Position numbers and translations under genes: made by a program. A stretch of DNA of 24,356 nt from Candidatus Thorarchaeota archaeon (GTDB lineage Archaea; Asgardarchaeota; Thorarchaeia; Thorarchaeales; Thorarchaeaceae): NCBI GenBank assembly GCA_038893995.1, contig JAWAQK010000006.1:1-24356 (forward strand), read 5' to 3'. Below, one piece after another: positions 11,374 through 24,356 of the stretch (the first letter of the stretch is position 1; each line of letters opens with the position of its first letter). Under the pieces are notes generated by a model that saw only the letters and a program-made list of their open reading frames with translations, searched no databases and was not told the DNA's origin.

Positions 11374-11402
11374 TGATGTACATTCCTGTACATCAATGTA
11401 CT
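11374..11402. promoter_or_regulatory. Three phased TGTACA/TGTACT boxes, matching the TrpY TRP-box consensus
   Basis: TGTACA 11377-11382, TGTACA 11387-11392 and TGTACT 11397-11402, with a 10-bp period and 4-bp spacers. The first two form a perfect 9-bp inverted repeat, TGATGTACA-TTCC-TGTACATCA. They lie directly upstream of the trpB2 leader TATA box. Confidence 0.7.
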
Positions 11403-11410
11403 TAATAGGA

Positions 11411-11424
11411 CAATACTTATAAGG
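11411..11424 (+). promoter_or_regulatory. TATA-box promoter of the trpB2-1 leader transcript
   Basis: CAATACTTATAAGG, with TTATAA at 11417-11422. A near-identical CAATGCTTATAAGA sits at the equivalent position before trpB2-2. Confidence 0.72.
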
Positions 11425-11468: not shown

Positions 11469-11522
11469 ATGGTGAGCGTGTGTCTGCTCCACTGGTATTG
11501 GGGTCCGAGAGGACCCGTCTAG
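11469..11522 (+). CDS. Trp-containing leader peptide (uORF) of trpB2-1: MVSVCLLHWYWGPRGPV
   Basis: SD GAGGTGA (11457-11463), ATG 11469, two TGG codons (positions 9 and 11) and TAG 11520-11522. A same-length homolog lies upstream of the second trpB2. Confidence 0.75.
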   Translation: MVSVCLLHWYWGPRGPV

Positions 11523-11532
11523 TCAGCTCACC
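11497..11532 (+). repeat. 36-nt sequence repeated exactly at 22299-22334
   Basis: ATTGGGGTCCGAGAGGACCCGTCTAGTCAGCTCACC is present in both trpB2 leaders. Confidence 0.97.
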
Positions 11533-11682
11533 GTCCACCGAGGGTATCTCTTCTGTTTCTCTTGCGCGCTCGGCACCCACTGAGTGGAAGGGCGGATTGA
11601 GCTCTCAGATGTCAGTGGTCTCCGCACGGTACTCCATCAACATCTCAGGACAGACCACCTCAGAACAATGGTGAGATCCGAG

Positions 11683-12993
11683 ATGAAGACAGAATTCACA
11701 CGAGTGATCTTGAACCAAGAAGACCTTCCGAAGAACTATGTGAACATCGTACCGCATCTGAGAAGTCCTCTGCCCCCTCCCATCGATCCTCGCACGTCTC
11801 AGCCGATCGACCCCGAGGCGCTGAAGGCACTCTTTCCTGTCGAATGCATAAGACAGGAGGTGAGTACGGCCAGGGAGATCCGGATACCGGACGAACTCCG
11901 CGAGGCATACCTACAGATAGGACGTCCGACCCCACTCCAGAGAGCCGTGCATCTCGAGGCGGCCCTGAAGACACCAGCTAGGATATACTTCAAGCGAGAG
12001 GACACATCTCCAACTGGGAGCCACAAGCTCAATACAGCATTGGCACAGGCCTACTTCGCATCGAAGGAGGGTACTGAGAGGCTCGCCACGGAGACCGGTG
12101 CAGGGCAATGGGGGAGCGCTGTTGCGTACGCCGCGGCGCACTTCGGTCTGAAGGCCACCATCTACATGGTCAGTGCAAGCTACGAGCAGAAACCCTACCG
12201 AGGCATCATGATGAGGATGTATGGAGCCGATGTGACTCCCTCGCCATCCGACCGTACTGAGGTGGGTCGAAAGATCAGGGCTACTGACCCAAACCATCCC
12301 GGCTCTCTCGGGATAGCCATCAGCGAGGCTCTCGAAGACACCATGAATAGTCCAAACACCAAATACACACTCGGCTCGGTCCTGAATCATGTCCTGCTAC
12401 ATCAGACAGTGATCGGACAGGAGGTCGTCCAGCAGCTCAGGATGATTGGTGAGACTCCCGATGTGATAGTGGGATGTGTCGGCGGTGGTAGCAACTTTGC
12501 AGGCATGAGCTATCCCTTTCTGGCGCGGTCCGAATACCGTGATGTCGATTTCCTGGCCGTGGAACCTGTCGTTTGCGGAAAGATGACTAGGGGAGAGTAT
12601 CGTTACGACTATGGCGATTCTGCTGGCCTGACACCCATGTTGAAGATGCACACGCTCGGGGCAGACTTCACCCCGCCGCGGATTCATGCAGGAGGTCTCA
12701 GGTATCACGGTGTCGCTCCGACCATCAGTGCACTGATACTGGAGGGCCGCATCCGGCCAGTGGCATATGAGCAGGTCGAGGTGCTTGAGGCCGGCCGACT
12801 CTTCGCTCGTTCAGAGGGAATCGTGCCCGCTCCCGAGTCGTCTCACGCCATAAAGGCGGTCATTGATCTTGCCCTCAAGGCCAAGCAGGAGAAGCGGGAG
12901 CGTGTCATCGTGTTCAACCTCTCCGGTCACGGTCACTTCGACATGGCGGCCTACGGCTCTCTGATGGACGGGACGCTCGGCAGCGCAGCCTAA
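11683..12993 (+). CDS. trpB2: Tryptophan synthase beta chain, TrpB2 type (copy 1)
   Basis: PLP lysine motif [38 protein letters not shown], the TrpB2-specific HAGGLRYHG, and [12 protein letters not shown] 11683 follows GGTGAG and aligns with the copy 2 N-terminus; ATG 11668 is an alternative start. Confidence 0.95.
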
Positions 12994-20820: not shown

Positions 20821-22047
20821 TTGTCTAGAACGGAGAAGGTACTTATCTTCGATGCATCAGGAGTCCCGCTGCTCTTCTTTGACTTTGAGAGCCACGAGAT
20901 GAGGGTCGACAAGGTACTGGTCACCGGCTTCCTGACCGCACTACAGGCCTTCAGCTCCGAACTGTTTGAGACGGCGGCCCCTCGCATAGGCATCGAGCTT
21001 GGTCAGAATGTCGTTACCATGATCCGTCGTGAGGACCTGATCTTAGCAGTCATTGGTCATCGGAAGTACCTGCACCTGGAACGTGAACTCACTCAGATGC
21101 TTGCGGAGATAGACCACCTGCTGCCCAGGAGTGGTCTTGTCCTCGAGGACCAGGCAATACTCGAACCAATTCGACGTAGGCTAATCAGGATCCTGTTCAA
21201 GATCCCCATCGCACAGGACTGGATCCCCGTCCCTGTAGAAGAATCGACCGCATTTGAGACGTGTCAGACCGAGTGCTCATGGTTGTCCGAGCTGGACGGT
21301 CACAGACGTATCGAGGATCTGAGAGTGTTCGGTGAAAAGCCCCGAGAGGAGATCTATACGATCCTCAATGCGCTCTATGTGGATGGTGCAGTCACTTTCA
21401 CCAACTTCATAGAAGACAGAGACTACATCATTGGTTCCGAGCAGGTCAAATGTCTGCTGGGCCGCGTAAGCACCGATCGTGACATGCTGTCGCTGAGTCA
21501 CCCAGATGTCGACATCGTCAGCGTGGTCAAAGACTTGGACGAGTTCGTTCTTGTCGGAGTCCTGCGGGAGAGGTACGGCGGGGGCGTGGTCTCCCTTCTC
21601 GAACACCTCTGGAGACTGGGCTACGTACAGATAGCAGACGAGGACACGCGTCGGTTGTTGATTGCCATTGACGTCTTCTCAATCTTCATTACGATCCTCC
21701 GGCAGCTCGTTGATGAGTCCAAGCTAATGTCGGAAGTACAACAGCTCATCAGAAGCACTGCCGACCATGATGTCCTCCAGAGATTGAAGCTCCTAGATAA
21801 CGAGATCGAGATCGAGAGGGGATTCTCATTACTCGAGTTTGAGAGCGTGACAGACCGGGAGTCTGCTATCACATCATGGGTGAACATCACACTGCGACTG
21901 ATCGACATCTACCTACCGAAACTCAAGGCACGACTCGTCCCAATGGTCTACGAGTATCTGATAGGACAGTATCTGCAGAGGTTTCATAACGAGGACCTCA
22001 GCATACTAAACCCGATACTATATCGACTGGAGCAAGATGCCCGGTAA
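20821..22047 (+). CDS. Longin-like domain protein with C-terminal winged-helix-like repeats
   Basis: The N-terminus VLIFDASGVPLLF...DKVLVTGFLTALQAFSSEL matches the Asgard longin pattern. LDGHRRIEDL...ILNALYVDGAV and LLEHLWRLGYVQI resemble winged-helix (wHTH) domains. Confidence 0.78.
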   Translation: MSRTEKVLIFDASGVPLLFFDFESHEMRVDKVLVTGFLTALQAFSSELFETAAPRIGIELGQNVVTMIRREDLILAVIGHRKYLHLERELTQMLAEIDHLLPRSGLVLEDQAILEPIRRRLIRILFKIPIAQDWIPVPVEESTAFETCQTECSWLSELDGHRRIEDLRVFGEKPREEIYTILNALYVDGAVTFTNFIEDRDYIIGSEQVKCLLGRVSTDRDMLSLSHPDVDIVSVVKDLDEFVLVGVLRERYGGGVVSLLEHLWRLGYVQIADEDTRRLLIAIDVFSIFITILRQLVDESKLMSEVQQLIRSTADHDVLQRLKLLDNEIEIERGFSLLEFESVTDRESAITSWVNITLRLIDIYLPKLKARLVPMVYEYLIGQYLQRFHNEDLSILNPILYRLEQDAR

Positions 22048-22210: not shown

Positions 22211-22224
22211 CAATGCTTATAAGA
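22211..22224 (+). promoter_or_regulatory. TATA-box promoter of the trpB2-2 leader transcript
   Basis: CAATGCTTATAAGA, with TTATAA at 22217-22222; homologous to 11411-11424. Confidence 0.72.
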
Positions 22225-22266
22225 GGCAACCCGCGGTCTCTCTCTGGACCTATCCCGAGGAGCGAC

Positions 22267-22486
22267 ACAGATGGTGCGAGTTGGTCTACGCCACTGTCAT
22301 TGGGGTCCGAGAGGACCCGTCTAGTCAGCTCACCATCTGTCGCCAGGACCAATTCTCATTCTGCCTCGCACATTCTGAGCTCTGGAGTAGTCTCCGGTCC
22401 AGACTCATTCTTCGCACCCAGTCTTGGGACTGGACATCCTGCGGACTCGGGAAGGACCCTCCCAGAACAGGAAGTGAAAATAAGAC
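22267..22486 (+). promoter_or_regulatory. Structured 5' leader / candidate attenuator of trpB2-2
   Basis: GAGA-loop hairpin 22303-22318; helices 22267-22276/22331-22340, 22327-22332/22376-22381 and 22376-22386/22398-22407, the last followed by TTCTTC. Confidence 0.65.
22271..22324 (+). CDS. Trp-containing leader peptide (uORF) of trpB2-2: MVRVGLRHCHWGPRGPV
   Basis: SD GAGGAG (22257-22262), ATG 22271, TGG at codon 11 and TAG 22322-22324. Same length and frame as 11469-11522. Confidence 0.72.
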   Translation: MVRVGLRHCHWGPRGPV

Positions 22487-23803
22487 ATGACCAGACCAAT
22501 ACGAGTTACACTTGGCATTGAAGACTTACCAAGAAGCTATGTGAATATCGTACCATACCTGAGGGAACCGCTTCCTCCCGCAGTTGACCCAGTGACATCC
22601 GAACCTGTCACTGTGGAGAGACTGTCTGCAGTATTCCCCACTGAGTGTGCGAGGCAGGAGTTGTGTACAGACCCGGAGATACCGATTCCAGAAGAACTCC
22701 GTGAGTCCTACATACAGATAGGTCGACCAACGCCCCTCCAGAGAGCAGTCCACCTCGAGCAGAAGCTCAGGACCCCGGCAAGGATCTATTTCAAGAGGGA
22801 AGACCTGTCTCCAACGGGGAGTCATAAGCTCAACACTGCTCTTGCACAGGCGTACTTTGCGCTGAAAGACGGTGCACAGCGCCTCACTGCAGAGACGGGA
22901 GCCGGACAATGGGGCTGTGCCGTCGCTCTTGCTGCATCACACTTTGGTCTTAGTGCCTCGATCTATATGGTGCGGACAAGCTTTGAGCAAAAGCCCTACA
23001 GGACATTCATGATGAGGATGTATGGTGCAGAAGTCATCCAGTCTCCATCGGAACTGACTGAGTCCGGCAAGAGGGTCCGTGCGAATTCCCCTGAACATCC
23101 CGGATCCATCGGCATTGCCATCAGCGAGGCCGTCGAAGACACGCTACACAGTCCTGGTACCAAGTACGCAAACGGTTCTGTGATGAACCACGTACTCCTT
23201 CACCAGACTGTCATAGGCCAGGAAGTGGTTCAACAACTGAGGAAGGTCGATGAGACGCCAGATGCAGTCGTGGGATGTGTGGGAGGCGGCAGCAACTTCG
23301 CAGGGATAAGCTATCCCATGATGGTCAGACCTGAATACAGAGATGTCAGCTTCATTGCGGTTGAACCTGATGCGTGCAATAAGATGACGAGAGGCGAGTA
23401 CCGGTATGACTTCATCGACTCAGCTGGTCTGCTCCCAAGGCTGAAGATGCACACACTCGGTGCAGACTTCACGCCAAGGCGAATACATGCGGGTGGACTC
23501 AGATATCACGGTGTGTCGCCCACGGTCAGCGTCCTCATCAATGAGCGACGAGTTCATCCCGTCGCCTATGACCAGGTGGCTGTCCTAGAGGCTGGCCGGC
23601 TCTTTGCCCAGACAGAGGGGATCGTCCCCGCTCCTGAGTCTTCCCACGCAATAAGAGCAGCCATTGACCTTGCGACTGCGGCTCGAAGAGATGACAGAGA
23701 GATGGTCATTGTCTTCAATCTCTCTGGTCATGGCCATTTTGACATGGGTGCCTATGGTATGCTCATGGATGGTGCACTGGCCATGCCCCCGCTCGCCGCA
23801 TGA
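22487..23803 (+). CDS. trpB2: Tryptophan synthase beta chain, TrpB2 type (copy 2, divergent)
   Basis: Motifs [39 protein letters not shown] and NLSGHGHFD; colinear with copy 1. Confidence 0.95.
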   Translation: MTRPIRVTLGIEDLPRSYVNIVPYLREPLPPAVDPVTSEPVTVERLSAVFPTECARQELCTDPEIPIPEELRESYIQIGRPTPLQRAVHLEQKLRTPARIYFKREDLSPTGSHKLNTALAQAYFALKDGAQRLTAETGAGQWGCAVALAASHFGLSASIYMVRTSFEQKPYRTFMMRMYGAEVIQSPSELTESGKRVRANSPEHPGSIGIAISEAVEDTLHSPGTKYANGSVMNHVLLHQTVIGQEVVQQLRKVDETPDAVVGCVGGGSNFAGISYPMMVRPEYRDVSFIAVEPDACNKMTRGEYRYDFIDSAGLLPRLKMHTLGADFTPRRIHAGGLRYHGVSPTVSVLINERRVHPVAYDQVAVLEAGRLFAQTEGIVPAPESSHAIRAAIDLATAARRDDREMVIVFNLSGHGHFDMGAYGMLMDGALAMPPLAA

Positions 23804-24067
23804 CGCAGTACCGGACCATTGAGAGTCCTGGTCCTTACTCGACACGCCGGGTCAGTAGCCGGGGCCGGAACTTGCTGTCTGCCACCAGTGATGAATGTAT
23901 GCAGCCACGATACCAAGACCTACTTCTGGCATGGCAGACAGCGCCTCTGATCACGGGTGGTCCCTCCCCGCATGCGACGGTGTCAGACGGCACGGAGCAT
24001 CCTACAGACTATTTGTCAGCCACATCTTAATATCTGGGGCGTGGGTGTTAGTGTTGGCGATCAGGGA

Positions 24068-24356
24068 ATGGAGAGACACAACATCCAGGCCATGCTCATC
24101 ATGGAGCGAGGCGGAATCCCTCTGTTCTTTGCAAAGCTGGACCCACGTGCGCAAGACCTAGACCCAATGCTTGTTGCGGGTTTCTTCACCGCTCTCAAGA
24201 ACTTCTCCAAGGAGGTAGTCGAGAAGAGCAGCGACATGTTTCAGGTCGACTATGGTGCCCGCCTCTTTACTGTCATCTCTGGTGACAATGTAGACATGGT
24301 CGTGGTTGGCATGGGTGAGTGGGACAACACACTTGACTCGGTCCTCAGGTCCCTCA
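24068..24356 (+). CDS. Partial CDS with an N-terminal longin-like domain (runs off the window end)
   Basis: Not in the ORF track. Manual translation MERHNIQAMLIMERGGIPLFFAKLDPRAQDLDPMLVAGFFTALKNFSKEVVEKSSDMFQVDYGARLFTVISGDNVDMVVVGMGEWDNTLDSVLRSL. Same G(I/V)PL..F / D..LV.GF..AL..FS.E pattern as the 20821 protein. Confidence 0.82.
   Translation, partial: MERHNIQAMLIMERGGIPLFFAKLDPRAQDLDPMLVAGFFTALKNFSKEVVEKSSDMFQVDYGARLFTVISGDNVDMVVVGMGEWDNTLDSVLRSL

Follow-up and report, generated by a model that had tools for sequence, protein, structure and literature searches.

The window analysed here is a 24,356-nucleotide stretch of contig JAWAQK010000006.1 from a Candidatus Thorarchaeota archaeon (GCA_038893995.1). 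It carries two trpB2 paralogues, each preceded by a leader with a short upstream open reading frame (uORF) (Table 1). In a profile search, the copy 2 product scored 627 bits against NF009057, for a cut-off of 366. Copy 1 and its related leader lie 10.8 kb upstream of copy 2 on the same contig; its open reading frame extends over 11584-12993, with a likely start at 11683 rather than at the GTG at 11584. Nearly all other genomes of the family that were searched contain one trpB2. No trpA above the family cut-off was found in the source genome (91% complete), and trpA is present in only 4 of the 61 family genomes searched, so that TrpB2 is probably the sole Trp-forming enzyme of the source genome, using indole. 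Thorarchaeota TrpB2 contains a single Trp, which fits synthesis during starvation, and TrpB2 from several other Asgard lineages contains 4-7. The source genome also encodes a TrpY-family protein, away from trpB2 (C43:15821-16330), and FttA/aCPSF1. Elsewhere in the window, open reading frames at 384-1136, 20821-22047 and 23957-24355 encode what we take, by sequence inspection only, to be a Rab-like small GTPase and two longin-like proteins, genes typical of Asgard archaea; the two longin-like frames (20821-22047 and 23957-24355) gave no NCBIfam match.

Table 1. Positions of the genes and leader features at the two trpB2 loci of the window.
Feature	Position	Strand	Remarks
Copy 1 promoter	11377..11423	+	Three TGTACA-type boxes at 10-bp spacing, and TATA
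Copy 1 leader	11469..11674	+	uORF 11469-11522; C CAC UGG at 11489-11495; -1 frame open to 11674
trpB2 copy 1	11683..12993	+	74% identity to copy 2; profile match
Copy 2 TATA box	22216..22223	+	Predicted transcription start near 22246
P1, 5' strand, copy 2	22249..22259	+	Overlaps the uORF SD
uORF SD, copy 2	22257..22262	+	Anti-SD pairing in 89% of leaders
Helix 1:2	22267..22340 (22267-22276 with 22331-22340)	+	10 bp, perfect; start region pairs with post-stop segment
uORF, copy 2	22271..22324	+	17 codons, frame 0, one Trp codon
Internal SD-like motif, copy 2	22273..22283	+	Candidate 5' frameshift stimulator; -10.0 kcal/mol
Heptamer position, copy 2	22291..22297	+	C CAA UGG eroded to C CAC UGU; Trp to Cys
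+1 frame, copy 2	22293..22490	+	Also open; AUGA overlap with trpB2; chance about 0.4
-1 frame, copy 2	22294..22521	+	No stop within the leader; ends 32 nt into trpB2
Only Trp codon of copy 2 uORF	22301..22303	+	Two codons 3' of the conserved site; touches the hairpin
Covarying hairpin, copy 2	22303..22318	+	Candidate 3' stimulator; compensatory changes in 4/5 pairs
Helix 2:3	22327..22381	+	6 bp; common to copy 1 only
Helix 3:4 and short tail	22376..22413	+	Not conserved
P1, 3' strand, copy 2	22446..22455	+	Just upstream of the trpB2 ribosome-binding region
trpB2 copy 2	22487..23803	+	TrpB-like PLP enzyme; 438 aa, single Trp, catalytic motifs intact

Leaders related to those of the window precede trpB2 in 57 Thorarchaeota loci from 14 genera. 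The relatives bearing the leader motif are named Thorarchaeota, and all strong matches of a covariance model fell at trpB2 loci belonging to this leader family. A protein-pattern scan of the source genome's contigs gave no match, and the matches from loose pattern searches mostly look like chance. The leaders share a layout in which an SD with its start codon is followed by a second, SD-like motif within the uORF, by the near-invariant heptamer C CAA UGG, by a hairpin that covaries and by a stop codon, and in which a helix joins the 5' and 3' ends (P1). Most of them are preceded by TGTACA-type boxes at 10-bp spacing, which resemble the TRP-box consensus, and by a TATA box located 71-79 nt (about 72) before the heptamer wherever it was called. 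The uORF SD pairs with the genomic anti-SD at -5 kcal/mol or better in 89% of the leaders; in nearly all of them, an SD is present and the start codon shares its frame with CAA UGG. AUG and GUG interchange at the start, and indels before the uORF stop keep the frame in 50 of the 53 scored cases. The conserved SD and start, the start codon swaps and the frame-keeping indels suggest that the uORF is translated, and they support an earlier proposal, made in a preliminary description of this DNA, that a uORF with a Trp codon serves trpB2 as a ribosomal tryptophan sensor. Several lineages have shifted the uORF stop or lack it, and the encoded residues track the hairpin. The conserved residues and fixed Trp-to-Pro-stop spacing expected of a TnaC-type arrest peptide are not seen in the family; the variable stop position and the variable peptide after the Trp make such a peptide unlikely.

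The internal SD-like motif pairs with the genomic anti-SD at -5 kcal/mol or better in 96% of the leaders versus 4% of control windows, and its spacing to the heptamer falls within the 9-14 nt range of known -1 stimulators, a count that depends on the register used, the Thorarchaeota motif pairing with one bulge. In the heptamer, the preceding C is found in 57/57 leaders, CAA in 55/57 and UGG in 56/57. This C is the third base of codons for six different residues and is thus fixed at the base level, and the Gln is always encoded by CAA, the less frequent of the two Gln codons in the source genome. The covarying hairpin (4-6 bp) follows about 5 nt after the heptamer in Thorarchaeota and is weaker than the dnaX stem. 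Since RNAalifold on MAFFT alignments recovered this small hairpin alone, the long helices were tested by comparing own-pair with cross-genus duplex energies. P1, which pairs the 5' end of the transcript with a region 18-45 nt before trpB2, gave -18.0 kcal/mol for own pairs versus -11.0 kcal/mol for cross-genus pairs and was better in 14/14 genera; in copy 2, it forms with p 0.7-0.97. The post-stop region of the leaders is C/U-rich and G-poor. At the gathering threshold, the leader gave no Rfam match (T-box, known riboswitches, Trp_leader).

The preliminary description had interpreted the copy 2 leader as a classic trpL-type attenuator, in which a ribosome stalled at UGG frees segment 2 for helix 2:3, while a ribosome reaching the stop allows helix 3:4 and a U-rich tail to terminate transcription near 22410. 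Its parts are all in the sequence where it had placed them, namely helices 1:2, 2:3 and 3:4, the UGG codon, the UAG (22322-22324) and the UUCUUC tail. A perfect 10-bp stem like helix 1:2 arises in only 9 of 1000 shuffles of the copy 2 leader, indicating that this helix exceeds chance, and pairing of the start region with the post-stop segment beats cross-genus controls in 11/14 genera, a moderate conservation; over its full length, the leader is no more stably folded than its shuffles (z = -1.0). Segments 2 and 3 also pair in copy 1, which speaks for the attenuator, but equivalent pairing in relatives is not above cross-genus controls (median rank 0.55; 6/14 genera). Helix 3:4 is not conserved, and copy 1 lacks an equivalent of it. 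Hairpin-plus-U matches resembling terminators occur in 21/56 leaders (38%) at scattered positions, versus 25% of shuffles, and the longest U run of the copy 2 leader is 2.

The switching step was modelled for a single ribosome stalled on UGG by masking its footprint (22284-22315) in the fold. Helix 1:2 then formed with p = 1.0 and helix 2:3 with p = 0.0, the opposite of what had been proposed. The Trp codon lies 30 nt from the AUG, so that one stalled ribosome leaves segment 1 uncovered, and 1:2 forms instead of 2:3. Helix 2:3 won (p = 1.0) only when all upstream sequence was removed, although a second, queued ribosome could cover segment 1. In the masked fold with a ribosome at the stop, helix 3:4 reached p of about 0.6. 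As a terminator, 3:4 with its tail is further weakened by the fact that U tracts, rather than hairpins, underlie archaeal terminators, and that efficient aCPSF1 binding in M. maripaludis requires at least two U4 tracts (PMC8716108). An E. coli-type terminator attenuator in the copy 2 leader is therefore unlikely, and we give very little credence to the complete 1:2 / 2:3 / 3:4 scheme with intrinsic termination near 22410.

The strongest conserved feature of the family is absent from that description: the -1 frame is open after the heptamer. It contains 6 stops in 2567 codons, whereas 118 and 137 were counted in the two remaining frames. In 52/57 loci, it is open across the leader, versus 9.6 expected. 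With one leader per genus, it is open in 11/13 (P about 3e-9, a figure inflated by kinship). The stop-depleted region is the poorly conserved middle of the leader, and the idea that an antisense gene causes the depletion was rejected. In 47/57 loci, the frame ends between -12 and +21 relative to the trpB2 start, with an AUGA overlap in 13 loci. Six loci have it in the same frame as trpB2, and each of them carries a stop at -3 or -6, so that a fusion to TrpB2 was rejected. Substitutions in the -1 frame show no third-position bias, which makes a functional -1 peptide unlikely and suggests that translation itself matters rather than its product. The leaders contain several elements of a programmed -1 signal: an alternative frame open from the shift site and under selection, an SD stimulator 9-14 nt upstream and a stem-loop a few bases 3' of the site. 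The site differs from the canonical slippery heptamer X XXY YYZ; it is X XAA UGG, on which only a P-site slip is possible. In one leader (L030, genome G015), the start codon has been lost and the -1 frame is no longer open (stop at -85), and the trpB2 that follows is broken by stops, consistent with joint decay of the leader and its gene.

Two other Asgard leader families of the same design were found upstream of trpB2, one with C CAA UGG (f16: L225, L226) and one with G GAA UGG (f3: L016, L018, L217, L218). Their start codon is located one or two codons before the heptamer, in frame 0 and at the ideal distance of 6-7 nt after the SD. These leaders have two steps, the heptamer being followed by a -1 frame of 45-59 codons that terminates in a Trp cluster, some 70-95 nt short of trpB2; the f3 frame runs across a hairpin and U tracts on its way. 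Whether the site is C CAA or G GAA, the base that precedes the P-site codon is identical to the first base of that codon, as a one-base slip of the P-site tRNA requires. Other Asgard lineages have other arrangements before trpB2. Three leaders (L020, L231, L235) have a Trp-Pro-Trp cluster just before the stop, followed by U-rich sequence, and are possibly conventional leader peptides. In several other Asgard families, a gene for a TrpY-family regulator is divergent from trpB2 (L019, L021, L229, L230, L233), and in family f15 (L219-L222), a small helix-turn-helix-like frame that ends at or overlaps the trpB2 start replaces the leader.

We propose that the Thorarchaeota leader is a tryptophan-sensing -1 frameshift switch that would turn trpB2 on under Trp starvation, and we assign this reading a probability of about 0.6. 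From the conserved layout, we infer translation of the uORF, the slip, its dependence on Trp and the output step as follows. Ribosomes would initiate on the uORF. When tRNA-Trp is charged, UGG would be read and the ribosome would stop at UAG and leave, P1 and helix 1:2 would close the leader, and trpB2 would be off. When tRNA-Trp is uncharged, the ribosome would pause while UGG occupies its A site and XAA its P site, and the P-site tRNA, stimulated by the internal SD and by the hairpin on the 3' side, could slip back by one base (XAA to XXA). The shifted ribosome would then continue in the -1 frame, meet no stop, pass through P1 and arrive at the trpB2 start. The output may be termination-reinitiation, a process that operates in archaea (PMC6728339), unwinding of P1, or shielding of the transcript from FttA. 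Shielding of a C/U-rich leader is possible because the FttA gene is present and because the f3 frame crosses U tracts.

This reading has weak points. The heptamer is non-canonical, and re-pairing of the Gln-tRNA on CCA would leave a middle mismatch; both copies of the window carry CAC, for which re-pairing would be poorer, and copy 2 has no Trp at the site. Slow A-site decoding matters more in +1 than in -1 shifts (PMC5009743), which counts against it. Gaps of about 20 nt nearly abolish coupling, for which short distances are needed (PMC10666635), and some of the -1 stops (+16 to +35, or +116) are loose for reinitiation. Finally, folding does not hide the ribosome-binding site of trpB2 in a consistent way (mean unpaired 0.55).

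The same frame could be entered in another way. A ribosome stalled at UGG could release its peptide and restart at the overlapping AUG, or ribosomes could initiate directly at this AUG once the leader opens. The -1 frame indeed starts with an AUG inside the heptamer in 55/57 Thorarchaeota loci and in all six f3/f16 loci, an SD-like motif is present upstream, A-UG-G would act like an AUGA stop-start, and the archaeal termination-reinitiation mentioned above applies equally to this route. However, this AUG is located 11-15 nt from the SD, past the 5-8 nt peak of the source genome, the presence of CC or GG as the two preceding bases is left unexplained, and both copies of the window lack the AUG while their frame is still open. 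We thus hold entry at the AUG to be unlikely. It could also be that a stall at the Trp codon alters RNA structure or FttA/aCPSF1 access, in a tnaC- or polarity-like manner, with no change of frame. The conservation of P1, of the hairpin and of the 1:2-type pairing would agree with such a mechanism, as would a C/U-rich, G-poor post-stop region in a genome that encodes FttA/aCPSF1. Yet it does not explain a stop depletion specific to one frame, and the variability of the stop position and of the peptide after the Trp argues against a TnaC-type arrest, so we regard it as quite improbable.

Judged from its sequence, copy 2 is the most eroded member of the family. It is the sole leader among the 57 without UGG at the heptamer, and no operator boxes were found in its promoter, even at one mismatch. 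A metagenome scan for the CAC variant of the source genome's lineage gave no match, and one with a broader pattern returned one typical locus. Copy 2 descends from the proposed frameshift design but, with its eroded shift site, may have become relaxed. A related question, compatible with the frameshift reading, is whether copy 2 is a relaxed or rewired paralogue that senses Trp poorly, copy 1 being the regulated one. Besides the missing UGG and the missing boxes, the overlap of its Trp codon with the hairpin and the fact that both shifted frames are open would fit such a relaxation. On the other hand, copy 2 retains the SD, the start, the internal SD, the hairpin, the stop and P1, its uORF still includes a Trp codon in frame, and its -1 frame is open, despite divergence from copy 1 in the middle of the leader. 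We therefore suggest a relaxed copy 2 only tentatively, at slightly less than even odds.

A second cassette was found at trpE, in 15 Asgard loci and in some other archaea (L177-L191, L200, L201, L206, L207, L209, the last from Thermoplasmatota, outside Asgard). There, a short uORF ends in a U-rich or CAU codon (CUU, GUU or CAU, for example) followed by UGG, and TrpE lies in the +1 frame; three of these loci (L177, L185, L188) have no in-frame trpE start before the conserved N-terminal motif. By its layout, this cassette resembles the +1 shift of RF2, with a Trp codon as the shift site. In bacteria, the SD is spaced by 3 nt in +1 shifts and by 9-14 nt in -1 shifts (PMC5009743), and the SD spacings of the trpE (+1) and trpB2 (-1) cassettes differ in this same direction. 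On balance, we lean slightly towards the broader proposal that Asgard archaea may use programmed frameshifting at hungry Trp codons as an equivalent of attenuation, in the -1 direction in trpB2 leaders (X XAA UGG, a stretched SD, and a frame that stays open until the gene or a second Trp cluster is reached) and in the +1 direction at the trpE start.

Our paper searches, which left subscription journals outside their coverage, found no published report of this trpB2 leader or of trpE frameshifting, and no published example of a Trp-starvation frameshift switch. Known archaeal Trp control relies on the DNA-binding regulators TrpY and Tar (PMC6737238). Among archaeal -1 frameshifts, a single demonstrated case is listed in a review from 2023 (PMC9855744), and a review from 2016 knew of no examples of starvation frameshifting giving useful trans-frame proteins (PMC5009743). 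If our proposal is true, the cassettes would represent productive amino-acid-starvation frameshifting, for whose protein-making form the 2016 review had no example. A short conserved cassette turning Trp shortage into a change of frame would also offer a direct test of productive hungry-codon frameshifting, as well as of SD scanning by elongating archaeal ribosomes, and would explain trpE starts placed too late by gene callers.

By analogy, the leader family would function like ermCL and prfB, while being a canonical member of none of the families tested. With E. coli trpL (Rfam Trp_leader), it shares a short leader with a Trp codon before a Trp-synthesis gene and pairing of the start region with a post-stop segment, but it has no tandem Trp codons, its segment 1 is left uncovered by the stall, and it has no conserved terminator. 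The TGTACA-type repeats upstream of the TATA box and the TrpY-family gene of the genome recall TrpY/TRP-box repression in Methanothermobacter thermautotrophicus (PMC6737238), which acts at the DNA level and whose boxes are lost in copy 2. The Saccharolobus solfataricus fucA1 gene provides an archaeal -1 shift with a heptamer and a stem-loop (PMC9855744), but it joins two parts of one enzyme and is neither a leader nor an amino-acid sensor. The E. coli dnaX and IS-element -1 signals have the same order of elements, with an SD 9-14 nt upstream, a heptamer, a short spacer and a 3' stem-loop (PMC5009743), whereas they are constitutive, canonically slippery and protein-making; the leaders described here have X XAA UGG as their site, and what is made after the shift seems irrelevant. 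Bacterial prfB (RF2), which is autoregulated by a +1 shift, senses through slow decoding in the A site and uses an internal SD as stimulator (PMC5009743). The archaeal trpE cassette would mirror this arrangement with UGG replacing UGA, while the trpB2 leader differs by the -1 direction, by a sense codon as the sensor and by a regulated protein that is not fused. Finally, in the ermC leader (ermCL), a frame change in the uORF leads to translation and unfolding of the spacer and turns on the downstream gene (PMC5009743). The trigger there is a ketolide antibiotic, and here, in an archaeon, it would be uncharged tRNA at a Trp codon; unwinding of P1 as the output would make the two switches alike.
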